Positions 728-59,640 of a DNA stretch of 64,000 nt are shown piece by piece. Location: positions 810,593-874,592 of the forward strand of contig OY282356.1 in assembly GCA_958295535.1 (NCBI GenBank), given 5' to 3'. Made by a program: the position numbers and the translations under genes. Numbering within the stretch: position 1 is the stretch's first letter; each line of letters begins with the position of its first letter. The DNA comes from Gemmatimonadota bacterium (GTDB lineage Bacteria > Gemmatimonadota > Gemmatimonadetes > Palauibacterales > Palauibacteraceae). The notes under the pieces were generated by a model, which saw only the letters and a list, made by a program, of their open reading frames with translations, was not told the origin of the DNA and ran no database searches.

Positions 728-1000
728 TTGACGACAGAAACCACGACAGCGCGGTCGCCGGGCGCAGTGCTTGCGACGGCCAGGGATTTCTTCCTGGGGC
801 AGGATCGCATGGCGGATGCCTGGATCGAAACGGAGAGCGAGAGTCACATCACGTTCTGCACCTTTCGCGGCCGTCTGTCCGTGGCGGCCATGGCGGACCC
901 TGAGACTCCGGCGAAAACGCGCATCCGGGTCACGACGCTTCGCGAGGAGGGGATGGTCCCGCGGCTGATAGCGCATATTGGCATCGGGGCGCGGAAGTAA
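728..1000 (+). CDS. hypothetical small protein (90 aa)
   Basis: ORF with protein-like composition (MTTETTTARSPGAVLATARDFFLGQDRMADAWIETESESHITFCTF...), TTG start, placed just upstream of moaD. No family recognised. Confidence 0.4.
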   Translation: MTTETTTARSPGAVLATARDFFLGQDRMADAWIETESESHITFCTFRGRLSVAAMADPETPAKTRIRVTTLREEGMVPRLIAHIGIGARK

Positions 1001-1101
1001 GACGGCATCGGAGCGGGGAAGGAAGACGGCATCGGAGCGGGGAAGGAAGACGCTTGACGACATCGGCATCGCGGCGGAGAAGGATGACGCTTGACGGATT
1101 G
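980..1101. repeat. Junction tandem repeat: 24-nt unit x3 (980-1051), then a 37-nt-spaced copy (1028-1064 / 1065-1101)
   Basis: GGCATCGGGGCGCGGAAGTAAGAC / GGCATCGGAGCGGGGAAGGAAGAC x2 / GGCATCGCGGCGGAGAAGGATGAC. The first copy holds the TAA stop of the 728..1000 ORF and the last holds the moaD ATG. GCTTGACG(A/G) follows both the third copy (1052) and the last copy (1089). Confidence 0.85.
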
Positions 1102-1353
1102 GATGGGGACATCTCGATCCGAACCCTCCTGTTCGGGGTGTACGCCGAGCGGGCGGCGCTCCGGGAGTGTTCTGCCAGAGTCGCGGCGGGCAGCACGGTG
1201 AGCGACTTGGTGGAAGAGCTTCGGCGCGCGGAAGGGTGGAGCTGGCTGCCGCGGCGCGTAGTGGTCGCCGTGAATCAGAGTTACGCCGAGGGCGGCACGC
1301 GGCTCTCCGATGGGGACGAGGTCGCCCTGATCCCTCCGGTGGCGGGGGGATGA
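1084..1353 (+). CDS. moaD: molybdopterin synthase sulfur-carrier subunit MoaD
   Basis: ThiS/MoaD-size protein ending in the diagnostic ...LIPPVAGG. GGAGAAGG lies before ATG 1084 (the ORF is open from TTG 1054). Its stop overlaps the moaE ATG (ATGA). Confidence 0.85.
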   Translation: MTLDGLDGDISIRTLLFGVYAERAALRECSARVAAGSTVSDLVEELRRAEGWSWLPRRVVVAVNQSYAEGGTRLSDGDEVALIPPVAGG

Positions 1354-1820
1354 CCGTGGCGCGCGAAGTGGACGCAAGCCGGATTCGGGCGTGGATCACC
1401 CCGGACAGCTTGGAGAACTTCGCTCCGTTGGCGGCGTGCGGCTCCGAGGCGGACGGCGCGGCGCTCGTCTTCGAGGGGCGGGTGCGGGCCACGAACGAGG
1501 GGCGGGAGGTATCCAGCCTCGCTTACGAAGCGTATGCGGAGATGGCGGAACAAGAGTTGGAAGCGATTTGCGGCGAAGCTCTGGATCGATTCGCCGTGTC
1601 CTCGGCCTTCGCGGCGCACCGCGTCGGCGAGCTCGGGTTGAAGGAGGTTAGCGTCGTCGTCAAGGTGGCAGCCCCGCACCGGGAGCCTTGCTATGCCGCG
1701 TCGCGCTGGATAATCGAGGCCCTGAAGAGTCGTCTGCCCGTGTGGAAACACGAGCGTTACGCGGACGGCTCCTCGGTCTGGGTGGGCGCGCCCGCGGCCG
1801 CGAGCGGGGCGGGGCCGTGA
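1350..1820 (+). CDS. moaE: molybdopterin synthase catalytic subunit MoaE
   Basis: MTVAREVDASRIRAWITPD...AALVFEGRVR...VAAPHREPCYAASRWIIEALKSRLPVWKHE, MoaE-like. The ATGA overlap with moaD makes the in-frame ATG at 1350 the likely start. Confidence 0.9.
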   Translation: MTVAREVDASRIRAWITPDSLENFAPLAACGSEADGAALVFEGRVRATNEGREVSSLAYEAYAEMAEQELEAICGEALDRFAVSSAFAAHRVGELGLKEVSVVVKVAAPHREPCYAASRWIIEALKSRLPVWKHERYADGSSVWVGAPAAASGAGP

Positions 1821-2797
1821 AGGACCAGTTCGGCCGGAGTATCCGATACCTGCGCATCTCGGTCACCGACCGGTGCAACCTCAGATGTACGTACTGCATG
1901 CCCGAGGGCGGGCTGGACTGGATTCCGAAGCCCGAGATGCTCTCCTACGAGGAGATCGCCATGATCGTCCGCCAGATGGCGGACATGGGGCTGGAGAGGG
2001 TTCGGATCACGGGCGGGGAGCCTCTGGTGCGGAAGGATCTTCCCGACCTTGTCCGGATGATCGCGGCCGTGCCCGGGATCGACGACATTTCTCTTTCCAC
2101 CAACGCCATCCTGCTGCCGCGCTTCGCGGAACGGCTGAGGGAAGCGGGGGTGGCTCGGGTGAACATCAGCCTGGATACGCTCGACCGGGAGAACTTCGAG
2201 GTTATCGCCCGGCGTCCGGCCCGGCGCTTCGACGAGACGCTCGCCGGTATCCGGGCGGCCGAGGATGCGGGCTTTTCCCCGATCAAGATCAACTGCGTTC
2301 TCATGCGCGGGCTCAACGATGCCGAGGTGTCCGACTTCGCGGAGGCGACGCGCGAGCGGCCATGGCACGTGCGCTTCATAGAGTTGATGCCCGTAGGAGA
2401 GAATCTCCACCTCGCGGATAGATTCATGCCGGCCGGCGAAGTGCTGGACCGGATTCGCGCGATCGATGACCTCGTTCCGGATCCCGGCCCCCGCGGGAAC
2501 GGCCCTGCCGTCTACTATCGCTTCCCGGGCGGCGCGGGAACGGTGGGCGTGATCACGCCGCTTTCGCACAACTACTGCGAGCGGTGCAACCGCATGCGGC
2601 TGACCGCCGACGGCAAGCTCCGGACCTGCCTGTTCGGCACGCACGAGGTGGATTTGAAGGCGCCGTTGCGCGAGACGGGTTCCATTCGGCTGGCGGTGGA
2701 GCAAGCTCTGGCCGGCAAACCGAAGCGTCACTACCTGGAGCTGGGCTCGACCTCCGGGAGCGGCGGCTTGGCCGCGCTGAGCCAGGTTGGTGGCTGA
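1817..2797 (+). CDS. moaA: GTP 3',8-cyclase MoaA (radical SAM)
   Basis: YLRISVTDRCNLRCTYCMP (CxxxCxxC radical-SAM motif), ITGGEPLVRKDL, and a C-terminal NYCERCNRMRLTADGKLRTCLF cluster. GTG 1817 overlaps the moaE stop (GTGA). Confidence 0.95.
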   Translation: MKDQFGRSIRYLRISVTDRCNLRCTYCMPEGGLDWIPKPEMLSYEEIAMIVRQMADMGLERVRITGGEPLVRKDLPDLVRMIAAVPGIDDISLSTNAILLPRFAERLREAGVARVNISLDTLDRENFEVIARRPARRFDETLAGIRAAEDAGFSPIKINCVLMRGLNDAEVSDFAEATRERPWHVRFIELMPVGENLHLADRFMPAGEVLDRIRAIDDLVPDPGPRGNGPAVYYRFPGGAGTVGVITPLSHNYCERCNRMRLTADGKLRTCLFGTHEVDLKAPLRETGSIRLAVEQALAGKPKRHYLELGSTSGSGGLAALSQVGG

Positions 2798-2957
2798 CTT
2801 CGGCGTCCGGGCCTGCCGCGACGCCGGTCTTGCACGCGCGCCCATCCGGTTGAGCTAGGTCGGTGGCTGACTTCGGCGTCGGGGCCCGCCGCGGCGCCGG
2901 TCTTGCGCGTGCGCCCATCCGGCTGAGCCGGGTCTGTGGCTGACTTCGGCGTTGGGG
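2776..2957. repeat. 73-nt tandem repeat, about 2.5 copies, starting inside the moaA 3' end
   Basis: GGTGGCTGACTTCGGCGTC recurs at 2789, 2862 and 2935 (as TGTGGCTGA). Each unit repeats the moaA stop context and carries the hairpin CGGCGTC-N12-GACGCCG. Confidence 0.9.
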
Positions 2958-2988
2958 AGCCGGGGACGGCGGGGGCGAGGCTTTCGCC

Positions 2989-3543
2989 GTGGCGGTAAAG
3001 AGCGACAAGTGGATTCGGCGCATGGCGGCCGACCACGGCATGATCGAGCCCTTTGCCGGCGGCCAGGTCGCCGATGGCGCTATTTCGTTCGGAGTCAGCA
3101 GCTACGGGTACGATATGCGGGTAGCCGACGACTTCCGGATTTTCCACAACGCGCTCTTCCCCGTAGTCGATCCGAAGGGTTTCGACGAACGCTCTTTCGT
3201 GGAATTCCAGGGCGATGTCTGCATAATTCCCCCTAACTCTTTCGTCCTCGGGCGTTCGGTCGAGTATTTCAGGATTCCTCGCAGCATCCTTGCTATCTGT
3301 GTCGGCAAGAGCACCTATGCGCGCTGCGGCCTGATCGTCAACGTCACCCCCTTCGAACCGGAGTGGGAGGGACATGTTACGCTCGAGATATCGAACACGA
3401 CGCCGCTTCCGGCCCGGGTCTACGCGAACGAAGGAATTGCGCAAGTTCTGTTTCTGGAGTCGGACGAGGTGTGCGAGGTCAGCTACGCGGACAGGTTGGG
3501 CAAGTATCAGGGACAGACCGGAGTCACTCCGCCGAAGCTGTGA
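2989..3543 (+). CDS. dcd: dCTP deaminase
   Basis: [22 protein letters not shown]...SSYGYDMRV...[37 protein letters not shown]...[11 protein letters not shown], canonical Dcd. Confidence 0.95.
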
Positions 3544-3747
3544 TGCGAGCGAGTTGCCGCCCCGATTCCTGTTCCGCTCCGGCTCGGCGAGCTATTTGCC
3601 CGACTCGGCAAGCCCCATGCCGTCGAGGCCCCATCTAGTCGCCTGTCGGCGCGCTCGCCGCTTGTAGCGCTCCGGCCGCGACGATATCTTCGCAGCGTGG
3701 GAAAGTGAAGAAATTCACAAGTTCGCACGAGAGGAGCAAAGCCCCCC

Positions 3748-4104
3748 TTGCTTGACCCATATCTCGGCATTCTTGTCCTCGGTCTCTTCGGCGTTCTGAA
3801 CGCCGCCGGGATGATGGCCGTCTCTCACTTGGTCGGATCCCGACGGCCCAATCCGGTCAAGGCGAGTCCCTACGAGTCGGGCATCCCCCCTCTCGGCACC
3901 ACCCGCGAACGCTTCTCCGTCAACTTCTACATAGTGGCGATGCTCTTCATCGTCCTCGACATCGAAACGCTCTTTATCATCCCCTGGGCCGTGATTTTCA
4001 GGGAGGTCGGGATGGGCGGGTTCGTGGAAATCACGGTCTTCCTGCTAGTTCTGGGTACCGGACTGGTGTATGCGTGGAAACGGGGGGCGCTGGAGTGGGA
4101 CTGA
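3748..4104 (+). CDS. nuoA: NADH-quinone oxidoreductase subunit A
   Basis: 118 aa, three TM helices, PYESGIPP...FYIVAMLFIVLDIETLFIIPWA motif. Confidence 0.95.
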   Translation: MLDPYLGILVLGLFGVLNAAGMMAVSHLVGSRRPNPVKASPYESGIPPLGTTRERFSVNFYIVAMLFIVLDIETLFIIPWAVIFREVGMGGFVEITVFLLVLGTGLVYAWKRGALEWD

Positions 4105-4212
4105 TGGGCGCTGGGCCGCAACTAGTGCGCGCTGGAGCGGGACTGGCGGGACATGAAGCGGGATCGCCGGGCGCTGGACGGGGAGGCCGAAGAGGATGAA
4201 GCGACTCGACAC
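4087..4212. repeat. 42-43-nt tandem repeat x3 spanning the nuoA stop and nuoB start
   Basis: GCGCTGGAGTGGGACTGATGGG (4087, real nuoA end), GCGCTGGAGCGGGACTGGCGGG (4129), GCGCTGGACGGGGAGGCCGAAG (4171). ATGAAGCG occurs at 4153 (decoy) and at 4196 (nuoB start). Confidence 0.8.
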
Positions 4213-4921
4213 CGTGCCCGCCGACGCGACCGCCGCCGGCCGCGCGGAGCGAATCGGCGCAGGAGGACAGCTCGACACGGGCACGCCTCGCAGCTGGATG
4301 ACGACGAAGCTCGACTACGTCATCAACTGGGCGCGCCGGAACTCGCTGTGGCCGATGCCGTTCGGCACGGCATGCTGCGCCATCGAGATGATGGCTTCGG
4401 CCGCCTCCAAGTACGACATCGGACGGTTCGGGATGGAGCGGATGTCGTTCAGTCCCAGGCAGGCCGATCTGATGATCGTCGCCGGCCGGGTGACCTACAA
4501 GCTCGCTCCCGTCCTCCGCCGGGTGTGGGATCAGATGCCCCAGCCCAAGTGGTGCGTGTCGATGGGGGCGTGCGCGAGTTCGGGCGGCATGTTCGACAAC
4601 TACACGATAGTGCAAGGGATCGATACGGTGATTCCGGTCGATGTCTATGTGCCGGGCTGCCCGCCGCGCCCCGAGGGGTTGATCTACGGGCTCCTGATGA
4701 TTCAGGAAAAGATAAAGGGCGAGTCGCTGGCGCGGCCCGGTCCGCGGGACGAAGAGCCCGAGGCCGCCGGCAAGCCGAATCTGCCGCCGGAGACCATCGA
4801 ATTGGTCGCACAGCCGTTCGGCAACTCCACCAACCAGAACCGCGCGAGCGGATTCGTGCCGACCTCGGCGCTTGCCCGGCCCAGAGACAGGCGCGAGCGC
4901 CGTCTCGAGCACCTCGATTGA
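4196..4921 (+). CDS. nuoB: NADH-quinone oxidoreductase subunit B, with a C-terminal extension of about 70 aa
   Basis: [28 protein letters not shown]...[19 protein letters not shown]...[11 protein letters not shown], the N2-cluster Cys motifs. The tail after [10 protein letters not shown] is non-canonical. Confidence 0.9.
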
Positions 4922-4946
4922 CGGCGGGGCGTCCCACGGAGTGACG

Positions 4947-6818
4947 ATGACGCCAGACGCGGTACGGACGCCGGCGATGGTGCGCGGAGCGCCGGCCGGC
5001 GATGATCCCGCGACCCACCCCTCCGTGCGGGCGCTGAAGGACCGCTTCGGCGCGAGCGTCCTCCGCATCGAGTCCGATGCGGTGGGCTATCCCGTCGTCT
5101 GGATGCCTCCGGATCTCAATGCGGACATGCTCCGCTTCCTGCGGGAGACCCCGGGCCAGACATACGACCTGCTGGCGGACATCATGGGGGCGCACACGGG
5201 CATCGGCGCGCCGGTCCAGCTCTGGTACCAGCTCTGGTCGATGGCCGAGGGACGCCAGCTCCGAGTGGCTTGCGAGGTTCCCATTTCCAACCTCGAGGTG
5301 GAGAGCGTGTCGGACCAGTGGCACGCGGCCAACTGGCTGGAGCGAGAGGTCTGGGACATGTTCGGGGTCGTTTTTCGGGGTCACCCGGACCTGCGCCGCA
5401 TCCTGATGCCGGAGAACTACGAGGAGGGATTCCCTCTCCGCAAGGAGTTCCCCCTGCGGGGCCGGTTCAGCCGCTCCGAGCAAGTGCGCCGGGCTCTGTC
5501 GCGGGACCTCCTGGACATCTACGCCGCCGAACAGCTCGAGATGGCGGGCTACGCCATCTCCGGCGATGACGGCGCGGTGGAAGCCCCGGACAACGGCGGG
5601 GGAGCGCCGATACTCGAGGTCGAGACCGGCGAGAGACTCGACGATGCGCTCGAAGGCGAACCCCTCATGATAAACATGGGTCCGCAGCATCCGGCGACTC
5701 ACGGGGTCCTCAGGCTCGTGCTCCAGCTTGACGGGGAGCGAGTCGTCCGGGCCATGCCTCACATCGGCTACCTCCACACGGGATTCGAGAAGACGTGCGA
5801 GTTCCGCGAATGGAACCAGTGCGTGCCGTACACGGACCGCATGGACTACCTCGCGCCCATGCTCTACAACATCGGCTACGCGGGGGCCGTGGAGGCGCTG
5901 CTCGGGGTCGGGATAACGGAGCGGTGCAGGGTCCTTCGAGTCGTTCTGGGCGAGTTGAACCGCATTCTCGGACATTTGCTCTGGCTGGGGACGACCGCGA
6001 TCGACATAGGCGCCTTCTCCGTCTTCCTGTACACGTTCCAGGAGCGCGAGCGCATTTACAACTTGCACGAGGCGTACACGGGCGGGAGGATCACCACCTC
6101 CGTCACCAGGGTCGGCGGCATGATGGCGGACCTGCCGACGGGGTGGACGACGGCCGCCCGAGACTTCGCGGCGACATTCCCGGCTACGATCGACCAGGTC
6201 GAACGGCTTCTCTCGGCGAACGCCATCTGGCAGGGCCGGACGGTGGACATCGGCGTGCTCGACGCGGAGACGGCGATCAGCTACGGCGTCACGGGACCTT
6301 CGCTGCGGGCGAGCGGGGTGGCGTACGATGTGCGCAAGGCGCGTCCCTATCTCGGGTACGACGAGTACGACTTCGATGTGCCCGTGGGATCGGCCGGGGA
6401 CGTGTACGACCGGTACCTGGTGCGGATGGAGGAGATGCGGCAGAGCGTCCGGATCATCGAGCAGGCGCTCGACCGGCTGCCCGCCGGATCCGTCAACATA
6501 GACGACTACCGCATATCGCTCCCGCCGAAGTCGGAGGCGATGGGATCGATAGACGCGATGATATCGCACTTCAAGCTCGTCATGGAAGGGGTGCGGGTTC
6601 CGGCCGGCGAGACGTGGTACTCGATCGAGAGCTCGAAGGGAGAGCTGGGCTTCGGCATCATCTCCGACGGCGGCGCCAAGCCGGTGCGCTGCCGCTTTCG
6701 GGGCCCCTCGTTCATCAACATCGCGGCGCTCCCCGAGCTCGTGAAGGGGGAGCTGGTGGCCGATGTGGTGGCGATCAACGCTTCGCTGGATGTGGTGTTG
6801 GGAGAGATCGACCGGTGA
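4947..6818 (+). CDS. nuoCD: fused NADH-quinone oxidoreductase subunits C and D
   Basis: The N-terminal half carries NuoC motifs ([32 protein letters not shown]). The C-terminal half carries NuoD motifs ([24 protein letters not shown]...GYLHTGFEK...DVVLGEIDR). It is one uninterrupted frame, with ATG 4947 preceded by GGAG. Confidence 0.9.
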
Positions 6819-7426
6819 GCCGGAGCATTCACCCCGCGGTCGCCGGGGCGCAGCCCTTCCAGCTGGCTGTCCGCGAGAGGCCGGACGGACCGCTTCTCCA
6901 GACCGGCGAGGGCAAGGAGCGGCTGGAGATGGTCCTGTCGCGCTACCCGTCGCCGCGGGCGGCGCTGCTGCCGATGCTCGGATACGTGCAGTCGCGGAAG
7001 GGCTGGATCGAACCGTCCGACATGAACGAGGTGGCGGAGGCGCTGGGGCTGGCGCCGGCCTTCGTCCATTCGGTCGCGACATTCTACACGATGTACAACA
7101 AGCGTCCCGTCGGGCGTCACTTCATCCAGGTCTGCACGAATATTTCGTGTCATCTGAACGGAGCGGGCGAGGTCCTGGCGCGTTTCCTGGAGGAGACGGA
7201 AACGCGCCAGGGCGAGGTGTCCGCCACGGGGGAATTCACCGTGATCGAGGCGGAGTGCCTGGGAGCGTGCGGTTTTGCCACCGTGGTACAGGTCAACGAC
7301 AGGTATCTGGAGTGCGTCACGGCGGAGAAGGTGCCGGAGATATTGAAGGAGCTGCGAGACTCCGCTCGCTCGGGCGCCGCCGCAAGCGACGAGGCCCGGC
7401 GGGGATCGGGCGAGAGGTCGCCGTGA
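6815..7426 (+). CDS. nuoE: NADH-quinone oxidoreductase subunit E
   Basis: [17 protein letters not shown]...[29 protein letters not shown]...ECLGACGFA (2Fe-2S Cys pattern). GTG 6815 overlaps the nuoCD stop. Confidence 0.9.
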
Positions 7427-8754
7427 GCTACCCGCACCGTAGCGACCTCGAGACCTCGACGCGGCTCTCGCGGTACCAGGGCCGGCCGGAGGCGCGCGCG
7501 CTGGATGGGTGGGAGCGCCTCGGAGGCTACGAAGCGTTGCGCAAGGCGTGCGGCATGTCCCCCGGGGAGATAACCGACGTGGTCAAGGCCTCCGGGCTCC
7601 GCGGACGCGGAGGGGCGGGCTTCCCGACGGGTCTGAAGTGGAGCTTCATGCCGGAGGGCGGCGACAAGCCCCACTACCTGTGCTGCAATGCCGACGAATC
7701 CGAGCCGGGCGCCTTCAAGGACCGCGAGGTGATCCGGTGGACGCCGCACCTGCTGCTGGAGGGATGCCTGATAGCGGCGCGGGCGATCCGGGCGGAGCAC
7801 GTCTACATCTATGTGCGGGGCGAGTTCTTCGAAGAGACCAAGGTTCTCAACCGGGCGGTCGTCGAGGCTTACGAACGCGGGTACATCGGCCCGAACGTCG
7901 CGGGGACGGACTGGTCGTGCGATGTGACGGTGCACCTTGGCGCCGGGGCCTACATCGCCGGCGAAGAGACGGGTCTCATGAACTCGCTGTCGGGCAACCG
8001 GGCCGAGCCATGGGCCAAACCGCCCTTTCCGGCGCAGTCGGGGGTCTTCGGCATGCCGACCACCGTGAACAATGTCGAGACGCTGGCGACCGTGCCCGGG
8101 CTCATCGCGCACGGAGCGGAGTGGTACCGGCAGTGGGGGAGCGACAAGTCTCCGGGGACCAAGCTGTGGAGCTGTTCGGGACACTTGGCGCGGCCGGGGA
8201 ACTACGAGTTCGAGCTCGGCGTTCCCTTGCGAGACATCATTTTCGGCGCCTGCGGGGGGACGCATTCGGGCAAGGCGGTGAAGGCGGTGATCCCCGGCGG
8301 ATCGTCCACGGCATTTCTCGCCGGAGACGAGCTGGACTGCGCCACGACCTACGAGGGGTTGCAGGAGGCGGGAAGCTCTCTGGGAACCGCGTCGCCGATC
8401 GTCATGGACGCCAGCACGGACATCGTCGCGGCCATGCGGCGCATCGCTCAGTTCTACGCGCACGAATCGTGCGGGCAGTGCGTGCAGTGCCGCGAGGGCA
8501 CCTCCTGGGTCGTGCGGATTCTTCAGCGGATCGAGGCGGGCGACGGCGCCCCTCGCGACATCGACACCCTGTACGACCTCTGCGAACAGATGACCGGGCG
8601 GACGATCTGCGTGCTTGCCGACAGCGTCGTGTTTCCGCTTCGCTCGGCGCTCGACAAGTTCCGGGCCGACTTCGAAGCCCGGATGAAGCAGCGGCTCTTC
8701 GCGCCCGCGGCCGCGGCCGGCGGGTCGGCGCGCCTTGCGACGGCCGGCGTCTAG
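7423..8754 (+). CDS. nuoF: NADH-quinone oxidoreductase subunit F
   Basis: GLRGRGGAGFPTGLKWSF (FMN site), CNADESEPGAFKDR, ESCGQCVQCREGT (4Fe-4S). GTG 7423 overlaps the nuoE stop. Confidence 0.95.
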   Translation: MSYPHRSDLETSTRLSRYQGRPEARALDGWERLGGYEALRKACGMSPGEITDVVKASGLRGRGGAGFPTGLKWSFMPEGGDKPHYLCCNADESEPGAFKDREVIRWTPHLLLEGCLIAARAIRAEHVYIYVRGEFFEETKVLNRAVVEAYERGYIGPNVAGTDWSCDVTVHLGAGAYIAGEETGLMNSLSGNRAEPWAKPPFPAQSGVFGMPTTVNNVETLATVPGLIAHGAEWYRQWGSDKSPGTKLWSCSGHLARPGNYEFELGVPLRDIIFGACGGTHSGKAVKAVIPGGSSTAFLAGDELDCATTYEGLQEAGSSLGTASPIVMDASTDIVAAMRRIAQFYAHESCGQCVQCREGTSWVVRILQRIEAGDGAPRDIDTLYDLCEQMTGRTICVLADSVVFPLRSALDKFRADFEARMKQRLFAPAAAAGGSARLATAGV

Positions 8755-8757
8755 GCG

Positions 8758-10386
8758 ATGGCCGATAACGCGATGAACGGGTCGGCGATCGAGCTGACGA
8801 TCGACGGCGCCCGGGTGAAGGTCCCGCCGGGCACGCGCGTGATCGACGCGGCGGAGCGAGCGGGCATCGTAGTGCCGCGATACTGCTATCATCCGGGCAT
8901 CCCGAGCCGGCCGGCGCAGTGCAGGGTCTGCCTGGTGGAAGTCGAAGGCCGCCCCAAGCTCGAGCCCTCCTGCACGCTGCCGGCGGCCGACGGGATGGTG
9001 GTCCGAACCGCGAGCGACGTCGTGAGCGAGGCGCGGCGGTCCGTCATCGAGTTCCTGCTCGTGAACCACCCGCTCGACTGTCCGATCTGCGACGCGGCGG
9101 GGCAGTGCATGCTCCAGGACTACGCCTACTCGACGAACCAGCTCGAGAGCAGGGTGAACGAACCCAAGCTGGTCATGGGCCGCGACCGCATCGCCGACGA
9201 TATCCTGTACTTCGCGGATCGCTGCATAATATGCACCTGCTGCGTGCGCTTCATGAGCGATGTCGCCGAAGACAATGTGCTGATCGTCGCCAAGCGCGGG
9301 AGCAAGGCGTACATCGACACCTTCCCCGGCCGGAAGCTCGACAACCCGTTCCAGGGGAATATCGTCGATGCGTGCCCGGTCGGCGCCCTCGTTCACGAGG
9401 ACTTCCTGTTCAAGGCGCGCGCCTGGGACATGGATGCCGCGGCCAGCGTCTGCCCCGGCTGTTCGACGGGCTGCAACGTGATGATCGAAACCAAGGAGAA
9501 CCAGATCGTGCGGCTCAAGCCGCGGTACAACGGCGCGGTCAACTCCTACTGGATGTGCGATCACGGCCGCAGGTGCCTCGTCATGACGAATCGCGGGGTG
9601 CGCGCCGAGACCCCCCTGATCAGAGACGACGATGGCGAACTGCGCCCGGCCGGTTGGGCGGAGGCGCTCGAATGGACGAGGGGGAAGATCGAACAAGCCG
9701 GGTCGCCGGGCGGAGAAGCGATCGTGTCGCCCGGCGCGTCGAACGAGAGCCTCTTCTTTCTGAGGCTCCTGCTCGATCGCCTCGGCATAGAGAGCGCCGG
9801 CTTCAGCGTGCCGCAGGGGGAGACCGCGTCTCTTCCCGGCGTCCCGACCCTGAAGCTGCGCGCCGACCGGGCGCCGAACGTGGCTGGGGCCGAGATGTTC
9901 GGCGGCGAGCGAGCCGATGGCGAGCTCGCCGCGGCCACGGGACGGCCGCGGGACGGCGGCGCGCTCGTCGTGCTGGACGACCAGCTGGACGGCGCCGGCG
10001 ACTCCTTCGGCGAGGGCGAGGGTCTCTTCCTCTACTTCGGCGCCCGGCTCCCCTCCGCCGCGCGCCACGCGGACGCAGTTCTCCCGGTCGCGACCTTCGC
10101 CGAGATGGACGGCACCTTCACGAACGCCGACGGGCGCGTGCAGCGCTTCCATCAGGCGCTCGCGCCGCCGGGGATCGCGCGCCCGGCGTGGATGGTCCTC
10201 AGCCGCCTCTTGGCATCGGGCCGGAACGGGCGCGCGATTTCCGACATCCGCGAGGCGTTCGCCCGGATGGCGGAGTCGACGCCGGCGTTCGCCGGCCTCA
10301 CGTGGGACGGGATCGGTCTGAAGGGCGCGAGCGTCGCGGATTCGCGCGCGGCGGCGCCGGAGGCTCCGGCCGGGACGGCCGGATGA
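8758..10386 (+). CDS. nuoG: NADH-quinone oxidoreductase subunit G (short form, 542 aa)
   Basis: N-terminal 2Fe-2S ferredoxin fold (RYCYHPGIPSRPAQCRVCLVEV), HPLDCPICDAAGQCMLQD, RCIICTCCVRF. Confidence 0.9.
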   Translation: MADNAMNGSAIELTIDGARVKVPPGTRVIDAAERAGIVVPRYCYHPGIPSRPAQCRVCLVEVEGRPKLEPSCTLPAADGMVVRTASDVVSEARRSVIEFLLVNHPLDCPICDAAGQCMLQDYAYSTNQLESRVNEPKLVMGRDRIADDILYFADRCIICTCCVRFMSDVAEDNVLIVAKRGSKAYIDTFPGRKLDNPFQGNIVDACPVGALVHEDFLFKARAWDMDAAASVCPGCSTGCNVMIETKENQIVRLKPRYNGAVNSYWMCDHGRRCLVMTNRGVRAETPLIRDDDGELRPAGWAEALEWTRGKIEQAGSPGGEAIVSPGASNESLFFLRLLLDRLGIESAGFSVPQGETASLPGVPTLKLRADRAPNVAGAEMFGGERADGELAAATGRPRDGGALVVLDDQLDGAGDSFGEGEGLFLYFGARLPSAARHADAVLPVATFAEMDGTFTNADGRVQRFHQALAPPGIARPAWMVLSRLLASGRNGRAISDIREAFARMAESTPAFAGLTWDGIGLKGASVADSRAAAPEAPAGTAG

Positions 10387-12654: not shown

Positions 12655-12992
12655 GCGCGGGCGCGAGCGAAGCCGGCGCGTTGGCCGGTCTCGGCATCCA
12701 CGGGCTGATCGCCCTCTTCACGAGCGCGATCCTCTTCTCGATCGGCGTTATCGGCGTGCTGATCCGGCGGAACGCGATCATCGTCTTCATGTGCGTCGAG
12801 CTGATGCTCACCGCGGCGAACATCGCGCTCGTGGTCTTCTCCAGGCTGCACGGCATGGAGGGGCAGATACTCGTGTTCTTCGTGATGGCCGTCGCCGCTG
12901 CCGAGGCGGCCGTGGGCCTGGCGATCATCATCGCCGTCTTCCGCCACTACGAAGTCGTCGATCTGGACCGCTTCCGGCTGCTCAGATGGTGA
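12651..12992 (+). CDS. nuoK: NADH-quinone oxidoreductase subunit K
   Basis: [30 protein letters not shown]...[20 protein letters not shown] overlaps the nuoJ stop. Confidence 0.95.
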
Positions 12993-13250
12993 TGGCCGGG
13001 GCCGGAATCCAGGAGGGGGCGGCAACGATCCGCCGATTCCGACCGCGGACGACGCTCGGATGGCGATGACCGGGGCCGGAATCCAGGAGGGGGCGGTAAC
13101 GATCCGCCGATTCCGACCGCAGACGACGCTCGGATGGCGATGACCGGGGCCGGAATCCGGAAGGGGGCGGCAACGATCCGCCGATTCCGACCGCAGACGA
13201 CGCTCGGATGGCGATGACCGGAGCCGGAATCCAGGAGGGGGCGGCGGCCA
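12983..13250. repeat. 74-nt tandem repeat, about 3.6 copies, filling the nuoK-nuoL junction
   Basis: Units start at 12983, 13057, 13131 and 13205: C(A/G)GATGG(T/C)GATG(G/A)CCGG(G/A)GCCGGAATCC(A/G)G(G/A)AGGGGGCGG... Each copy reproduces the nuoL start codon context and first roughly 12 codons. Confidence 0.95.
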
Positions 13251-18656: not shown

Positions 18657-18683
18657 CGCCGGCTGTCCCGCTTCCGCGGCGTC
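18655..18683 (+). terminator. Hairpin immediately after the nuoN stop (candidate operon terminator, no U-tract)
   Basis: GACGCCG-N15-CGGCGTC, a 7-bp GC stem beginning in the TGA stop. Confidence 0.3.
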
Positions 18684-18814
18684 ATCCTCGCCCCTGCGGC
18701 CGGCGCGGTCGTCGTCGATGGACGTCGACGCTTGCGGTCGCGCCTGCGCCGCCATCTTTGCCGCTGCCGTCCGAGCAAGTCGTCGTCCGGCCATCTACGT
18801 GACTGAGCGCTCTC

Positions 18815-22785: not shown

Positions 22786-22968
22786 TGCGCCGTCCGCGCA
22801 CCCGGACTGCGCCGTCCGCGCAGGCCCCGGACCGCCGAGCGCCGGCCAGCCGCCACCCGCCGCGATGGCGTTCCGACGCTCGCCCGCCGGATGTGCTCCC
22901 GCCATGGCCGAGATTGCGCTTCGACGCTCGCCCGCCGGATGTGCCCGCGCCATGGCCGAGGTTGACAT
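22786..22968. repeat. Two short tandem duplications in the ndk-rpmF spacer (22-nt x2 and 49-nt x2)
   Basis: TGCGCCGTCCGCGCA at 22786 and 22808. TTC(C)GACGCTCGCCCGCCGGATGTGC(T)CC(CG)CCATGGCCGAG(A/G)TTG at 22871 and 22920. Confidence 0.7.
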
Positions 22969-31800: not shown

Positions 31801-31861
31801 CGACCTGCTTGCCCCGTTCTTCGCGCTATCCGGACGCCGTTCTTGGCGCTAATCCGGACGA

Positions 31862-32066
31862 GGGCCGGGCCCCGGCGACACCGCCTGTCCCGGCTGACAC
31901 CGCGCGTCCCGGCGCTATTACACCGGTTGCTCGGGGAGCGGGCGGGGACTTCGCGGCCCCTCGATACCGCGCATCCCGGCACTTTGGCGCCGGCTGGATT
32001 CGGGGAGCGGGCGGGGACTTCGCGGCCCCTCGATACCGCGCGTCCCGACGCTTTGACACCGGCCGG
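31862..32066. repeat. 69-nt tandem repeat, about 3 copies (first one diverged), upstream of kdsB
   Basis: TCGGGGAGCGGGCGGGGACTTCGCGGCCCCTCGATACCGCGC(A/G)TCCCG... starts at 31931 and 32000. A partial earlier copy is at 31862-31930. Confidence 0.85.
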
Positions 32067-36102: not shown

Positions 36103-36177
36103 AAAGAGTCCACGGCGAGCGGGGTGGTGGCTACGACGGCTCGCCGTTGCGACAGGTATCGCCGGTTGAGCTGTGAA
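36071..36177. repeat. 74-nt-period duplication of the kdsC 3' end including its stop
   Basis: CGTTGCGACAGGTATCGCCGGTTGCGCCGTGAA (36071) versus CGTTGCGACAGGTATCGCCGGTTGAGCTGTGAA (36145). The spacer forms the hairpin CGGCGAGC-N18-GCTCGCCG. Confidence 0.9.
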
Positions 36178-36216
36178 CGAGGAGAAATTCGTCATGGCGG
36201 CGACTCGGTGGTCGGC

Positions 36217-43978: not shown

Positions 43979-44090
43979 CGACCTTCGCTCGCGCCGTGGC
44001 AGCGGGGCTTGTGCGCGGGTCTCGCAAACGGCCTCTAGGGCGCGGTCATCCATGACTTTCGCTCGCGCCGCGGCGGGGCTGGCGCTGCTG
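43979..44090. repeat. 74-nt-period duplication of the 5' end of the GT-C gene
   Basis: GACCTTCGCTCGCGCCGTGGCAGCGGGGCTTGTGCGC (43980) versus GACTTTCGCTCGCGCCGCGGCGGGGCTGGCGCTGC (44054, directly after the ATG at 44052). Confidence 0.8.
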
Positions 44091-45560: not shown

Positions 45561-45587
45561 TGGGCGGGCCGACTAGCCGAGATGCGG

Positions 45588-45675
45588 GCATCCGGCTGGC
45601 GTACAGTCCGCCGGACGCGCTTCGGCATCCGGATGGCGTACAATCCGCCGGACACGCTTCGACATCCGGAGGCGC
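45588..45675. repeat. 37-nt tandem repeat, about 2.3 copies, between the GT-C and YfhO-like genes
   Basis: GCATCCGGCTGGCGTACAGTCCGCCGGACGCGCTTCG / GCATCCGGATGGCGTACAATCCGCCGGACACGCTTCG / ACATCCGGAGGCG... Confidence 0.85.
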
Positions 45676-50022: not shown

Positions 50023-50023
50023 G

Positions 50024-51022: not shown

Positions 51023-51023
51023 G

Positions 51024-53270: not shown

Positions 53271-53327
53271 GCCGGGCGCCGCTTGGCGCTGAGCTTGCCA
53301 TCCGCCACCGGGCGCTTTGGGGAGACG

Positions 53328-53432: not shown

Positions 53433-53495
53433 ATCCTCGCGCGCGCGTTCACGCTTGGACGGGATCCGCGCGCCATCCGCCAAGCCGGCTCCGCG

Positions 53496-55730
53496 TTGCG
53501 GCATCTGCCGCTCGCGGTGGCAGCCGTCCTGTCAGCTCAACCGCTGGGCGCCCAGGATGGCGGACGCGACAAGCCCCCGGTAGCGCTAGCCCGGATCGCG
53601 GGGGAGGAGATCCTGCTGGATGGCGTTGTGGAAGAACCGGCGTGGGATGCCATCGAACCGCTGCCCCTGGTCATGTATTCGCCTACCTATGACGGCGCAC
53701 TGACCGAGAGGAGCGAAATACGCGTCGCATACAGCGAATCCCACCTCTACATATCGGGCCGGCTATTCGACTCCGACGTCAGCGGAATCAGAGCGAACAC
53801 CTTCTCTCGCGACGGTTTCAGCGGCGACGACCAGTTTGCCATCGTTCTCGACAGCTACAACGATCACGAGACCGCCGTGGCCTTCGTGGTAAATCCCAAC
53901 GGAGCCCGCTCGGATCGAAGCGTGTGGAGCGACGCCGAGTTCACTGCGGGAACGAGGCCCTTCAACAGCGACTGGAACGCTCATTGGAGCGCGGCGACCC
54001 GGCGCACCGAGGAAGGGTGGTCGGCGGAGATGCGAATTCCGTTTTCGTCGCTGGGGTTTCAGGACAGCGACGGGGAAGTCACGATGGGTCTCATCGTCTA
54101 CCGCTCCATCTCCCGCAAGAACGAGCGCCAAGTGTATCCCGCCATCTCGCCCGAATACGGATTCTTCGGATTCGGCAAACCCTCGCTGGCGCAACGAGTT
54201 ACGATGCGGGGCGTGAGCCGTGGGACACCTCTCTACGTGACCCCGTACATTCTGGGAGGAGTTACGCGCACTCCGGCGCTCCTGGAGCCGCCCGATGTGG
54301 ATGACGCCTATTGGGGCGCGACGGACGGACGGACCACGGAGCCTGGACTCGACATCAAATTCTCTCCGTCCTCCAGCTTCTCCATGGACATTACGGCAAA
54401 TACGGACTTTGCCCAGGTGGAGGCCGACGACCAGCAAATCAACCTTACCCGCTTTCCCCTCTTCTTTCCCGAAAAACGCCAGTTCTTCCAGGAGCGGTCG
54501 GCAACCTTCGACTTCGCGACGGGGGGCGTTACGGACCGTGTTTTCTTCAGCCGCCGGATAGGGCTCGCCGACGGCGACATTGTACGCATATACGGGGGAC
54601 TGCGGATGGTCGGGCGGCTAGAAGGGCTCGACTACGGCTTCCTCAGCATGCAGACCGCGGCCAGCGCCGGGCGGCCTAGCGAGAACATGGGCGTTGTGCG
54701 CCTCAAGCAGCAGATAATCAATCCGCAGTCGTCGATCGGAGCGATCGTCACGACCAGGCTGGGGGTTCGCGGCGAGCAAAACATCGCCTACGGAGCGGAT
54801 ACCGAAGTTCGGCTGTTCGGAGACGAGTACCTGACGGTGAAGTGGGCCCAGACAATCGACGAAGAAATCGAGGCAAGCGATCCGCTCGACGCAGGACTGA
54901 TCTTCGCCCAGTTCGAGAGGCGCAAGCAGGAAGGATTCGCGTACAGCGCGCAGTACCGCAGGGTAGGGGACTCCTACCGCCCGCGGCTCGGCTTCCAAAG
55001 GCGGGATGACTTCACCTATTACGGAGGTTCGGCCGGGTACTCCTGGTTCCTGGGCGCGAACTCGCAGCTGCGAACCGTGTGGCTCCAGGCGAGCACCGAG
55101 CACTACTACCGAAACTCCGATATGACTCCGGAGTCTCGCGTCGTGAACCCCCGGCTCACGGTGCAACTGAAGGCGGGGGGCTTCTTGACGGTGGGAGCTC
55201 GGTCCAGCTTCGAGAGCATTCGCAGCAGCTTCGAAGTGGCCGATTTCACGGTCTCTCCGGGCGACTACTGGTTTCACGAGGCGGAGGCGTCCTGGAGCTT
55301 GGCGCGGGGCGGTGCGCTCAGGGGAGAAGTCGGGGCCTCCGCGGGGAGCTTCTATTTCGGCAGGCGGGTGAATCTTCGGTTGAGTCCCGCCTTCAACCTC
55401 TCCAAGCATTTGGAGATCAGCCCCGGCTACGAGACGAATCGTTTCGAACTCGACGGTGGAGCGGGTCTTACGGCGCACTTGGCCCGGCTGCGGCTGGACT
55501 TCGCCCTCGACACCCGCCTCGGATTGAGCACGCTGGTCCAGTACAACTCGATCTTGGACAGGGCTACGGTAAACGCGCGTCTGCGTTACCACTTCCGGGA
55601 GGGAACGGACCTCTGGCTCGTTTACAACGAGGGATACAACACGGACCGCGATCTAGGCGCGCCGACTCCGCTTCCCGTGTCGGCTGGCCGCGCTCTGATG
55701 ATCAAGTACACCCACACCCTCGCGTTCTAG
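53496..55730 (+). CDS. DUF5916 / CBM9-like domain outer-membrane protein (paralog B)
   Basis: Collinear with paralog A (GEEILLDGVVEEPAWDAIEPL...IRVAYSESHLYISGRLFD...WSAEMRIPFSSLGF...MIKYTHTLAF). TTG 53496 gives the signal peptide MRHLPLAVAAVLSAQPLGAQD, matching the layout of paralog A. The ORF is open from TTG 53283. Confidence 0.75.
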   Translation: MRHLPLAVAAVLSAQPLGAQDGGRDKPPVALARIAGEEILLDGVVEEPAWDAIEPLPLVMYSPTYDGALTERSEIRVAYSESHLYISGRLFDSDVSGIRANTFSRDGFSGDDQFAIVLDSYNDHETAVAFVVNPNGARSDRSVWSDAEFTAGTRPFNSDWNAHWSAATRRTEEGWSAEMRIPFSSLGFQDSDGEVTMGLIVYRSISRKNERQVYPAISPEYGFFGFGKPSLAQRVTMRGVSRGTPLYVTPYILGGVTRTPALLEPPDVDDAYWGATDGRTTEPGLDIKFSPSSSFSMDITANTDFAQVEADDQQINLTRFPLFFPEKRQFFQERSATFDFATGGVTDRVFFSRRIGLADGDIVRIYGGLRMVGRLEGLDYGFLSMQTAASAGRPSENMGVVRLKQQIINPQSSIGAIVTTRLGVRGEQNIAYGADTEVRLFGDEYLTVKWAQTIDEEIEASDPLDAGLIFAQFERRKQEGFAYSAQYRRVGDSYRPRLGFQRRDDFTYYGGSAGYSWFLGANSQLRTVWLQASTEHYYRNSDMTPESRVVNPRLTVQLKAGGFLTVGARSSFESIRSSFEVADFTVSPGDYWFHEAEASWSLARGGALRGEVGASAGSFYFGRRVNLRLSPAFNLSKHLEISPGYETNRFELDGGAGLTAHLARLRLDFALDTRLGLSTLVQYNSILDRATVNARLRYHFREGTDLWLVYNEGYNTDRDLGAPTPLPVSAGRALMIKYTHTLAF

Positions 55731-55761
55731 CTCTCCAGGATCCGTTCTAGCTCTCCAGGAT
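55722..55761. repeat. 20-nt duplication containing the paralog B stop codon
   Basis: GCGTTCTAGCTCTCCAGGAT / CCGTTCTAGCTCTCCAGGAT. Confidence 0.85.
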
Positions 55762-57061: not shown

Positions 57062-58093
57062 CTACGAGTACATTCCGTGCCGCGACGCCGGCTTGCGGGC
57101 GGCTCGGTCTAGCGCGAGCACGAGGGCCGCTCCCAGGAGGGCGAGACCTGCGCCCGGCCAGACATCGGCGAAACTTTCGGGCCAACTGTTCCTCGAGAGC
57201 CACTCTACCCGGCCATCGGAGTGCGTGTACAGCTCCCGTATCCTCTCTTTCCACGGCCAGAGGGCGTTTAGCGATCCAACCAGGAAGCCGGCGAGAACGC
57301 TTAGCGTGGACGCGCGGCGCCGGTCAAGCAGCCATTTGAGTGCCCGGCTGAAGCTCAGCAGCCCGAGCGCCGCTCCACTGGCCAGGGCCGCGAGTCGAAC
57401 CGGATCGAATCCCTTGACCGCGCTAATTGCAGGAGCGTACGCCCCCAGGATCAGCAAGATGAAACTCCCCGAGATGCCTGGCAGAATCATGGCGCATGCC
57501 GCGACCGCCGCGCACGCCGCAAGAAAGAGCGGCGCGTCCGACTGCAGGAGCGGAGGGAGAGATGTGATGCCGAATGCGGCCGCGGCTCCGGCGATACCGA
57601 GCGCCAGCAGCGCGCCGGCCGACGGCGAGCGGCCGTCCGTCTGCCTGCCCGGCGCCGCGCGACTTTCGCCTGAGCTTCGCACGTGGCTCCCTACGAGGGG
57701 TGCCGATGCGGCCACCAGCCCGAAGAAGAAGGCCCACAGCATGGCCGGGTGGTGTTCGAGCAGCCAGTGGAGCAGCCGTGCGAACGCGGCGACGCTGGTC
57801 AGGATTCCGGCGAGCAGGACTGCAAGGAATGTCGCGTTGGCCCTCTGCCAAACGCCACGGACGCCGGCCTCGCGGAAGGCGCCGGGCAGGCCTCGCCCAA
57901 GGCTCCCGATAGTTGCCACCAGCTCGTCGTAAATGCCGACGATGAAGGCTACGGTTCCGCCCGATACGCCAGGCACCAAGTCCGCCAGCCCCATGGCGAT
58001 CCCCTTCGCGTAGAGGACAAACCAGTTTCGCCGACCTCCCGCGCCGTCCTGCCCCGCCGCCGATCGGGAGCCGGCTGGGCTAGCGTTCAGCAT
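57062..58093 (-). CDS. DUF368 family membrane protein (PopT-type undecaprenyl-phosphate translocase family)
   Basis: KGIAMGLADLVPGVSGGTVAFIVGIYDEL, with the repeat ...ILPGISGSFILLILG in the second half. This is the characteristic duplicated DUF368 motif. Confidence 0.8.
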   Translation of the reverse strand: MLNASPAGSRSAAGQDGAGGRRNWFVLYAKGIAMGLADLVPGVSGGTVAFIVGIYDELVATIGSLGRGLPGAFREAGVRGVWQRANATFLAVLLAGILTSVAAFARLLHWLLEHHPAMLWAFFFGLVAASAPLVGSHVRSSGESRAAPGRQTDGRSPSAGALLALGIAGAAAAFGITSLPPLLQSDAPLFLAACAAVAACAMILPGISGSFILLILGAYAPAISAVKGFDPVRLAALASGAALGLLSFSRALKWLLDRRRASTLSVLAGFLVGSLNALWPWKERIRELYTHSDGRVEWLSRNSWPESFADVWPGAGLALLGAALVLALDRAARKPASRHGMYS

Positions 58094-58141
58094 AGCGGGT
58101 CTCGCCGGCCTCTCGCGCCGTCCTGCCCCGCTCCCGTCCGA
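58027..58141. repeat. 74-nt-period duplication spanning the DUF368 gene start
   Basis: CGCCGACCTCCCGCGCCGTCCTGCCCCGCCGCCGATCGG (58029, inside the gene) versus CGCCGGCCTCTCGCGCCGTCCTGCCCCGCTCCCGTCCGA (58103, upstream of the ATG at 58093). Confidence 0.85.
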
Positions 58142-58223
58142 CGACGCCCGCCGCTCTGCTCCCCTGCTGCCACGGCTCCGGAACGCCCGGCTCCTCCGGA
58201 CACTAAAGCAGACATCGCGGACA

Positions 58224-59036
58224 TCACGTTTCCGGCAGCCAAGACCGCATCGTTCCGAGCCGGTCTCGGTGGGTCATGTCCAGCCGCAGAGGCGTGACCG
58301 ACACGAATCCGGCTGTCACAGCCCGGTAGTCGGCGTCGTTCTCCTTCCGCCAACGTCGCTTTCCTCCTCCGATCCAGAAGTAGCGCTGTCCGTGCGGGTC
58401 CGCGCCCTGGTGCACGGAGTCCTCGTAAACGCCTCGCCCGAGCGATGTTATCTCGATGCCGCCTATCTCGTTCGCGGGACGGGATGGGAGGTTGACGTTG
58501 AGCAGAGCATCCTTCGGAAGATCGGTTCGCGCCAGGCACGCCTCGATCAGACGGCCGATCACGCCATCGTACGTGTGAAGGTGCGAGTGATCTCTGCCCG
58601 TCGACGAAAAGGCCATCGATGGAATTCCCTGGATTGCTCCCTCCATGGCGGCCGCGACCGTCCCCGAATAGAGCACATCCAGTCCGATATTTTCTCCGAG
58701 ATTGACTCCGGACAGCACCATGCGCGGCGGTGCCTCGAGAATCTTGTCGAGGGCGAGGAGCACGCAGTCCGCCGGGGTTCCATCGACGGCGAAGCGCTGG
58801 CTGCCGCTACTCCGCACCCGCAGGGGACGATGCAGCGTCAGTGCGTGGCTGCATGTGCTCTGCTGCCGGTCGGGGACCACGGTCCACCGGTCGCCCAGCC
58901 TTTCGGCCACGCATTCGAGGACCTCCAGGCCCGCGGAGTGCACGCCATCGTCGTTCGTGCATAGAAGAACCGGTTTGGTCGCGGAGGTCGCGGAGGTCGC
59001 GGGCGCCTCTCCCTCGCGCGCGACTGGCCCTGTCAA
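58224..59036 (-). CDS. surE: 5'/3'-nucleotidase SurE
   Basis: VLLCTNDDGVHSAGL...GTPADCV...SGVNLGENIGLDVLYSGTVAAAMEG. TTG 59036 overlaps the MerR stop (TTGA). The longer track ORF, open to 59450, overlaps the MerR gene out of frame. Confidence 0.85.
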   Translation of the reverse strand: MTGPVAREGEAPATSATSATKPVLLCTNDDGVHSAGLEVLECVAERLGDRWTVVPDRQQSTCSHALTLHRPLRVRSSGSQRFAVDGTPADCVLLALDKILEAPPRMVLSGVNLGENIGLDVLYSGTVAAAMEGAIQGIPSMAFSSTGRDHSHLHTYDGVIGRLIEACLARTDLPKDALLNVNLPSRPANEIGGIEITSLGRGVYEDSVHQGADPHGQRYFWIGGGKRRWRKENDADYRAVTAGFVSVTPLRLDMTHRDRLGTMRSWLPET

Positions 59037-59395
59037 TCCACCCCGCCGCTGTCGAGTATCGACACTAGGTCGTCGGCATCCCGTCGCAGGTCGGCAAGCG
59101 TTTCCCTGTCCCACGCCACGCTCGCGGCCTGCGTGATCTCCCCGCTCTCGCGCAGCTCCGCGAGTCTCCGCTTCGCTCCTTCGATGGTGTAGCGATCGGT
59201 GTGGAGGAGTTGGCGAAGCAGCTGAAGAAGCTTGATGTCCTTCGGGCGGTAGATCCGGTTCCCCGCCTTGCCCTTGCTGGGCCGCAAGACCGTGAACTGG
59301 CTTTCCCAATACCGGAGAATGTGCGGTTTCAACCCGACAATCTCGCACGCTTCTCCGATGGAGTAGTATTCCCTCTTGGCTATTCGCTCCGGCAC
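59033..59395 (-). CDS. MerR-family transcriptional regulator (no metal-binding Cys)
   Basis: N-terminal HTH YYSIGEACEIVGLKPHILRYWESQF...GNRIYRPKDIKLLQ, followed by a coiled-coil. Confidence 0.85.
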   Translation of the reverse strand: MPERIAKREYYSIGEACEIVGLKPHILRYWESQFTVLRPSKGKAGNRIYRPKDIKLLQLLRQLLHTDRYTIEGAKRRLAELRESGEITQAASVAWDRETLADLRRDADDLVSILDSGGVD

Positions 59396-59494
59396 CCTGT
59401 TTTCCTCCCCCTCCCGTTTCTAGCCGTGGCACACGGGTTCGGCCTTGCAACTCCTGCGCCGCTACCGCGCGCCGGCGCCTACGCTACGCCGGTT

Positions 59495-59640
59495 CCTGAG
59501 AGCTAGCTTCAGCCCCAGCGGCTCTGGCCTTCACCCGCCACCCTGACGAGTGAACCAATGACTTCAGTTGCTTCAGCCACCGGAGAGCCTGCTTCAGTCC
59601 CACAGTTGCTTCACCCACCGGAGAGCCTGCTTCAGCCCCA
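59495..59640. repeat. 38-nt tandem repeat, about 3.5 copies, starting in the gpsA stop region
   Basis: CAGTTGCTTCA(G/C)CCACCGGAGAGCCTGCTTCAG(T/C)CCCA at 59565 and 59603. Diverged copies at 59495-59547. The TCA (TGA on the minus strand) of the gpsA stop is repeated. Confidence 0.85.

Follow-up and report, generated by a model that had tools for sequence, protein, structure and literature searches.

The 64,000-nt stretch of contig OY282356.1 analysed here (positions 810,593 to 874,592, called the window below) belongs to a Gemmatimonadota bacterium and carries tandem and spaced direct repeats on its gene starts and stops; these junction repeats, and in particular a class of them with a period of 73 or 74 nt, are the subject of this study. 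The window has a G+C content of 66% and about 58 genes, nearly all of which lie on the plus strand up to 55.7 kb. Pfam matches support moaD/E/A, dcd, nuoA-N, pgm, sucCD, ndk, plsX-fabDG-acpP-fabF, kdsB, pyrG, kdsA, kdsC, lptB, rpoN, glycosyltransferases, DUF368, surE, gpsA, plsY and der; most of the gene names given in an earlier note on this DNA are borne out in this way, but the large membrane gene that it called "GT-C" (44052-45560) has no Pfam match. The nuoC and nuoD genes are fused into a single gene at 4872-6818 that encodes 648 amino acids (aa; called as 623 aa in the sister strain described below). NuoH is 87-90% identical to that of Candidatus Palauibacter metagenome-assembled genomes (MAGs), which identifies the organism as a marine member of the Palauibacterales, Gemmatimonadota.

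Two sets of sequences were used for comparison. The first is a sister strain, a 3.05-Mb contig found by exact-protein look-ups (ENA ERZ19489113, s124.ptg000131l, where ptg000131l is a name of the kind that hifiasm gives to long-read contigs); its identity to the window is 99.0-99.5%, and the two were compared up to 36.4 kb and from 49 kb onward. The second is a sample of 80 related loci with a total length of 1.43 Mb, in which the ancestral states of junctions were read for those lying at most 10 kb from nuoH. A scan of JGI metagenomes with KdsA found no close relative, the best identity being 71%.

Repeats in the window were detected with Tandem Repeats Finder (TRF) and by ungapped offset scans. 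A local tandem or spaced direct repeat is present in 15 of the 26 non-overlapping junction gaps of at least 40 nt (~58%), against 16% of size-matched coding windows; the statement in the earlier note that almost every such junction has a repeat was thus overstated, and its observation that the repeats cover the stop and start codon contexts of the flanking genes is correct. When offsets were scored by windows with 13 of 14 nt matching, four independent loci were found at offset 74 and two at offset 73, with a mean of 0.24 segments per offset, and three loci at offsets 37 and 38 together. The same scan of the relatives gave no locus at offset 73 and one at offset 74. The preferred length of 73/74 nt, which had been measured by hand, is therefore statistically real. 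The six loci of this class are the following, where R is the repeated segment, S is the segment that separates its copies, and all R and S lengths are apparent lengths:

2776-2957, plus strand: moaA 3' end, 73-nt period present 2.5 times as R-S-R-S-R (R 36 nt, S 37 nt)
12980-13245, plus strand: nuoK/nuoL junction, 74-nt period present 3.6 times as three R-S units followed by R (R 44 nt, S 30 nt)
18605-18728, plus strand: nuoN 3' end, an older 73-nt direct repeat over the stop codon with 13/14 matches in its core and ~36/51 overall (R ~14-51 nt, S ~22-59 nt)
36071-36177, plus strand: kdsC 3' end, 74-nt spacing, R-S-R (R 33 nt with 31/33 matches, S 41 nt)
43980-44085, plus strand: 5' end of the large membrane gene ("GT-C"), 74-nt spacing, weak (R 22 nt ungapped with ~20/22 matches, or ~35 nt with a 3-nt gap; S 52 nt, or 39 nt with the gap)
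58028-58131, minus strand: 5' region of the DUF368 (VCA0040-like) gene, 74-nt spacing, R-S-R (R 30 nt with 28/30 matches, weaker to ~40 nt; S 44 nt)

The arrays at moaA and nuoK/nuoL were found again by TRF and the offset scans with the periods that the earlier note had given them. At three further loci that it listed as 74-nt duplications (36071/36145, 43980/44054 and 58028/58102) the 74-nt spacing stands, but the repeats are short direct repeats and not full tandem copies, and the locus across the nuoN stop (18605/18678) is an addition to its list. All six have the form R-S-R or (R-S)n-R and do not consist of an integer number of tandem copies. The content of R ties them to gene ends: at moaA it is made up of the final 19 nt of the gene, its TGA stop and 14 nt downstream; at kdsC it is the final 30 nt of the gene plus TGA; and at nuoK/nuoL it is the place where the nuoK stop and the nuoL start overlap in the native sequence. 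Each nuoK/nuoL unit also contains a 27-aa open reading frame (ORF) whose TGA overlaps the next ATG, and the present ATG of the "GT-C" gene arises at the boundary between S and the second R.

Identity is 82-94% between R copies and random in S, with an abrupt change where the two meet; so sharp a boundary is not predicted by uniform neutral decay of a simple duplication. When the S segments of the six loci were compared in register with their own flanks there was no significant similarity (p = 0.62), and gapped comparisons on both strands were likewise not significant, with one borderline case (nuoK/nuoL against its upstream flank, p ~0.05). Neither the S segments nor the units have a second occurrence in the ~90 kb of sequence from this species that was compared, and 11 units fold no better as RNA than shuffled sequence does (z −1.69 to +1.85). 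As the earlier note held, the repeats are real and particular to each locus, but at the 73/74 loci native sequence has not simply been duplicated.

The remaining repeats of the window are of other lengths:

980-1096, plus strand: junction between an upstream ORF and moaD, a 24-nt unit X present three times in an array at 980-1052 and a 13-nt unit Y, arranged as X X X Y X Y', the XY period of 37 nt being repeated at 1027-1096
4083-4160, plus strand: nuoA/nuoB junction, 21-nt units that are copies of the nuoA stop context, GGGCGCTGGAGTGGGACTGA, and come in two types by turns, with a 42-nt period
16810-17013, plus strand: in-frame 102-nt duplication in nuoM, one copy of which is absent in the sister strain
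22859-22964, plus strand: intergenic tandem repeat upstream of plsX, within a gap of 616 nt, 48 nt, 2.2 copies, identical in the sister strain
31814-32066, plus strand: intergenic cluster of 23-nt and 19-nt repeats and a 69-nt R-S-R-S-R (R ~34 nt, S ~35 nt)
45587-45674, plus strand: intergenic tandem repeat, 37 nt, 2.4 copies
55723-55761, plus strand: stop of the DUF5916 gene, a perfect 20-nt duplication (two copies) that includes the TAG stop
59565-59641, minus strand: gpsA 3' end, 38-nt tandem repeat, 2.0 copies, including the TGA stop, with an internal sub-repeat of ~21 nt
62270-62462, minus strand: in-frame 81/27-nt repeats in der (engA), where the sister strain differs by 54 nt

The units before moaD copy the TAA stop of the upstream ORF together with the Shine-Dalgarno/start context of moaD. 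TRF and the offset scans recovered the 69-nt (31899-32063), 37-nt (1027-1096 and 45587-45674), 38-nt and 20-nt repeats that had been reported; a reported 42-nt period at the nuoA stop corresponds to the 21/42-nt units (4087-4145), and a "49-nt" repeat exists at 22859-22964 but has a length of 48 nt. The 37/38-nt loci look like ordinary slippage duplications, and any tie between them and the 74-nt class is hypothetical. All repeats with a period not divisible by three sit on junctions or in intergenic DNA, and those with in-frame periods (15, 21, 24, 51, 54, 81, 84 and 102 nt) lie inside genes, a placement that fits the selection argument of the earlier note. The in-frame coding duplications show no peak at 72/75 nt, and the nuoM duplication shows the same duplication process at work within genes. 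Two adjacent genes with no Pfam match, at 36208-37086 and 37320-39176, also have in-frame repeats (21 nt, 7.8 copies, at 36914-37079, and 24 nt, 7.2 copies, at 38730-38931, respectively), which encode low-complexity repetitive protein segments.

The window and the sister strain, otherwise 99% identical, differ in copy number at five junction arrays and at five in-frame repeats in coding sequence. The window has three copies of the 24-nt unit upstream of moaD where the sister strain has two, 2.5 copies of the 73-nt moaA unit where the sister strain has 1.5 (R-S-R only, a 73-nt deletion), and 3.6 copies of the 74-nt nuoK/nuoL unit where the sister strain has 1.6 (R-S-R); the 21/42-nt nuoA/nuoB array is 126 nt longer in the sister strain, and the coding repeats differ by 15, 51, 54, 84 and 102 nt. 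The 51-nt difference is an in-frame tandem duplication (50/51 matches) at the N-terminus of the DUF5916 protein of the sister strain (window 53361; L083 reverse complement position 4277), and with its CCGGCG microhomology at the flanks it is a case of classical slippage; an older third copy, 63% identical, lies upstream of it, showing repeated duplication at one place. The extra copy in the 84-nt case is a hybrid of neighbouring copies, as expected from unequal crossover. The 51-nt array, with its CCGGCG flanks, and the 38-, 82-, 24-, 21/42- and 20-nt arrays fit the pattern of slipped-strand variable-number tandem repeats (VNTRs), in which contiguous native sequence is repeated an integer number of times beside a short microhomology; the 73/74 class departs from it in having a long fractional copy and an S that appears non-native. 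Outside the window, the sister strain has an 82-nt duplication over the pgk stop (L084:803-960) and, between rnhA and carA (L084:3272-3490), an intergenic run of some ten 20-nt units (CCAAGTTGGC...GCGACC), which lies ~3.7 kb upstream of window position 1.

Repeat loci number 22 per 100 kb in the window, 2.4 in Palauibacter and 0.4-0.8 in other Gemmatimonadota, and the relatives with complete chromosomes have none of these repeats; the high density of junction repeats is specific to this lineage. In the relatives nuoK and nuoL meet in a GTGA overlap in which R is contiguous and S is absent, and at this junction R is demonstrably native sequence. In most of them nuoN and pgm meet in a TAATG overlap, and their nuoA/nuoB junction has one copy and a gap of ~29 nt. 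Two other differences from the relatives lie close to these arrays. Between moaA and dcd (window 2797-2989) relatives (L004-L035) have two more genes, ~700 nt in all, for a small soluble and a small membrane protein; both are absent in the window, where the gap is filled by the 73-nt array. The N-terminal extension of NuoL that precedes the QEGA...FHP motif (window 13208-13270; nuoL starts L002-L035) is very variable in length among relatives, and in tblastn the NuoK and NuoL matches lie between 18 and 171 nt apart, which suggests recurrent in-frame indels in the Ala/Gly-rich leader of NuoL.

The R-S-R form with a fixed period is that produced by spacer integration into CRISPR (short palindromic repeats that are clustered and regularly interspaced), and type I-G cas genes lie just past the right end of the window on the sister-strain contig; the region beyond the window was therefore examined there. 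A CRISPR array is present ~9-14.5 kb past window position 64000 (L165:1-5313), with at least 72 repeats of 36 nt each, CTATCCCCGGCGAAGTTGCCGGGGCCTCATTGAAGC, and it extends off the examined stretch. Its spacers are 36 (6 spacers), 37 (23), 38 (29), 39 (3) and 40 nt (5) long, and the periods of 71 units are 72 (6), 73 (25), 74 (29), 75 (3), 76 (6), 69 (1) and 80 nt (1). Thus, 54 of the 71 units have the 73-74-nt period of the junction peak (73 nt at two loci and 74 nt at four), and the length for which the earlier note knew of no mechanism is also that of this genome's CRISPR unit. For two unrelated lengths, the chance that a peak 2 nt wide, lying anywhere from 30 to 110 nt, falls on the mode of the array is about 1/40 to 1/80. 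The closest geometric match to the CRISPR unit is moaA (36 + 37 nt); only its S lies within the array's spacer range of 36-40 nt, and that of kdsC (41 nt) is just outside. Summed over the six R sites, the best identity to the CRISPR repeat is greater than that of random 36-mers, but marginally so (p ~0.01-0.05 according to register tolerance), and the kdsC R is identical to the reverse complement of the repeat at 18/36 positions (50%) in exact register. The array spacers have only chance matches of 15-19 nt in the window.

The operon that adjoins the array (L165:5416-12152) is cas3g-cas8g2-cas7g-csb2 and is of type I-G. Degenerate repeats lie beside cas3, so the trailer end of the array is there and the leader and any cas1/cas2 would lie on the far side. 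In the sister strain csb2 is frameshifted (ORFs of 209 aa and 479/504 aa) and has no cas4, cas1 or cas2 in the usual place after it, so decay of the interference module is possible. A very similar 36-nt repeat (ATTTCCCCGGCGACAACGCCGGGGCCTCATTGAAGC) occurs in a type I-G locus of metagenomic origin that is unrelated (L166:12752-15038 and 16085-16417), in an array with a period of 73-77 nt that is interrupted by IS66 genes; the cas1 of this locus is frameshifted, and a 71-aa fragment of that cas1 product, used as the Cas1 query, matched only fragments of at most 125 aa.

The arrays, their junction location, their polymorphism between strains, the difference between lineages, the R-S-R form and the CRISPR geometry were all observed directly (above). 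Two superimposed processes could account for them, a background of slippage and a 73/74 class of fossil off-target spacer integrations, some of which were later amplified; we regard this reading as evenly poised between right and wrong. In the background process, replication slippage and unequal crossing-over would make and resize tandem duplications of 15-102 nt, and purifying selection would purge those that shift a reading frame. Duplications that are not multiples of three would persist only where the duplicated segment holds a stop or a start codon, with the first copy saving the upstream gene and the last copy the downstream start, and tight or overlapping junctions would thus grow into strain-variable arrays.

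For the 73/74 class we infer that Cas1-Cas2 is the maker. The integrase of the resident type I-G system would attack an off-target site of repeat length (~36 bp) in a staggered fashion, and gap filling would then duplicate the target R on both sides of the inserted spacer S (~37-38 nt), giving an R-S-R locus whose period is 73-74 nt. Survival would be limited to integrations with a target that lies over a gene boundary, and unequal crossing-over between R copies would have amplified some of them (moaA from 1.5 to 2.5 copies and nuoK/nuoL from 1.6 to 3.6), which in this proposal accounts for the likeness among the S copies of an array. Cas1-Cas2 can carry out full-site integration outside CRISPR, at sites that are separated by one repeat length and are similar to the repeat (PMC6698737), off-target integration sites mimic the leader-repeat junction (PMC6895254), and neo-CRISPR arrays arising from off-target integration in E. 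coli are attributed to Nivala, Shipman & Church (2018) in bioRxiv 10.1101/148544. The remark in the earlier note that no described mechanism gives this length has therefore to be revised, since the period of the type I-G array is identical and Cas1-Cas2 off-target integration has been described. As in such neo-CRISPR integration, native target is doubled here around a seemingly novel insert, the period equals the resident repeat plus spacer (exactly 36 + 37 at moaA), and the target sites may weakly resemble the repeat. The differences are that the duplicated length varies from 22 to ~50 nt and is not fixed at 36, that inserts of the same array repeat one another, having been amplified by recombination, rather than being successive new spacers, that the loci lie on gene junctions and at ~1 per 10 kb are far denser than reported, and that integrase genes were not observed in the stretch read, which begins after contig position 9036. 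The wider proposal, that the type I-G adaptation machinery scattered off-target integrations over its own chromosome, with ~1 surviving per 10 kb and hundreds per genome, kept only on gene starts and stops, is one to which we give slightly less than even credence.

Several observations weigh against an origin of the 73/74 loci by integration. The sum of R and S is better conserved than either R or S alone, and a fixed-stagger integrase does not obviously predict this constancy. At nuoK/nuoL 8-10 nt at one end of S equal the native flank, and the borderline gapped alignment there hints that this S may have decayed from a copy of the 3' end of nuoK. None of the S segments matches any spacer of the array. 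No cas4, cas1 or cas2 follows csb2 in the stretch read, the leader side (contig 1-9036) being outside it, and it was on the sister-strain contig, not on the contig of the window itself, that the CRISPR locus was observed. To have six off-target integrations fixed within 64 kb would be a density without precedent, and the 37/38-nt duplications, which are probably due to slippage, are not explained by integration.

The chief alternative is that all of the loci, including the 73/74 class, are slipped-strand or unequal-crossover duplications of native junction DNA, confined to junctions through selection, and that the match to CRISPR is coincidental. The S segments would then be the unconstrained edges of old units, diverged to saturation, unequal exchange would have homogenized the core R, and the 73/74-nt length would come from an unknown physical ruler. 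A VNTR/slippage process is clearly active in this genome, and the variation of R from 22 to ~50 nt with the sum steady at 73-74 nt, the 44-nt R at nuoK/nuoL with the possible gapped homology of its S to the nuoK 3' end, and the fact that no cas1/cas2 was seen in the stretch read are all in keeping with this alternative. However, no known slippage mechanism yields a length peak 2 nt wide, the in-frame duplications in coding sequence lack a corresponding peak, S has no residual homology to its flanks at six loci although the R copies have stayed so similar and sharp-edged, and exact agreement with the CRISPR mode would occur by chance in only ~1-2% of cases; we judge the alternative possible but lean against it. 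Close-strain copy-number polymorphism, microhomology at the young 51-nt duplication and the hybrid unequal-crossover copy are features shared with intergenic VNTRs, and intergenic tandem-repeat structural variants have been described in long-read Planctomycetota MAGs (PMC9426551); such slippage accounts for the 15-102-nt background and not for the sharp 73/74 peak or the non-native S. As other sources of a fixed length, wrapping of DNA by SSB or HU, fill-in of staggered breaks with non-homologous end joining, and tRNA-length templates were considered and set aside as speculation.

A function could also set the unit length, if the units supplied chains of small bridging ORFs with coupled translation, in the manner of MIRU elements, or a structured intercistronic RNA that tunes operon expression. 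The 27-aa ORF of the nuoK/nuoL unit points in this direction, as does the fact that 74, 38 and 20 are all 2 modulo 3, as coupling at ATGA/TGATG junctions requires, and MIRU elements, in which a small ORF of the unit is coupled to the downstream gene, behave similarly (PMC12548453). However, the 73- and 37-nt periods are 1 modulo 3, coupling fixes the period modulo three and not its size, the units do not fold better than shuffled sequence, and copy number varies freely between near-identical strains, and we consider this explanation improbable.

Still less probable is insertion of a dispersed mobile family (MIRU, REP or MITE-like) at gene ends. The loci do resemble MIRU-VNTRs in being tandem units of 40-100 nt in operons, with stop/start overlap, strain-variable copy number and, at nuoK/nuoL, a small bridging ORF in each unit; but MIRU is a dispersed family with a consensus, whereas each locus here is built from its own junction, R at nuoK/nuoL being native sequence by comparison with relatives, and no S or unit recurs in the DNA of this species that was compared. 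All-against-all alignment of 11 loci on both strands, made for a shared-consensus family, found only short GC-rich matches, none of them significant (best z = 4), in agreement with the earlier note, which had seen no REP- or MITE-type family. An assembly or strain-merging artefact, which the metagenomic source might suggest, is scarcely credible: copies within arrays have diverged by 5-18%, reading frames are intact, an independently assembled 3.05-Mb contig of a second strain has the same arrays with whole-unit differences in copy number, and several relatives with complete chromosomes lack such repeats.

Off-target integration has been shown mainly with over-expressed Cas1-Cas2 in E. coli and in vitro, and to our knowledge hardly anything has been reported on what it costs wild genomes or on the marks that it leaves in them. 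Even without a link to CRISPR, this lineage is a clear natural case of junction-restricted, fast-varying tandem duplications whose length preference would still call for a mechanism. If the link is correct, the 73/74 loci would preserve, as natural fossils, a record of off-target Cas1-Cas2 activity over the whole genome, with a signature searchable in any genome, an excess of intergenic direct repeats at the genome's own repeat-plus-spacer offset, from which the long-term self-damage by CRISPR adaptation could be estimated. Insertions at junctions would pry overlapping genes apart, make new starts and bridging ORFs and seed strain-variable arrays; they would thereby give overlapping, translationally coupled genes a route by which to separate and gain new starts, and off-target integration would be an unrecognised force that reshapes operon junctions.

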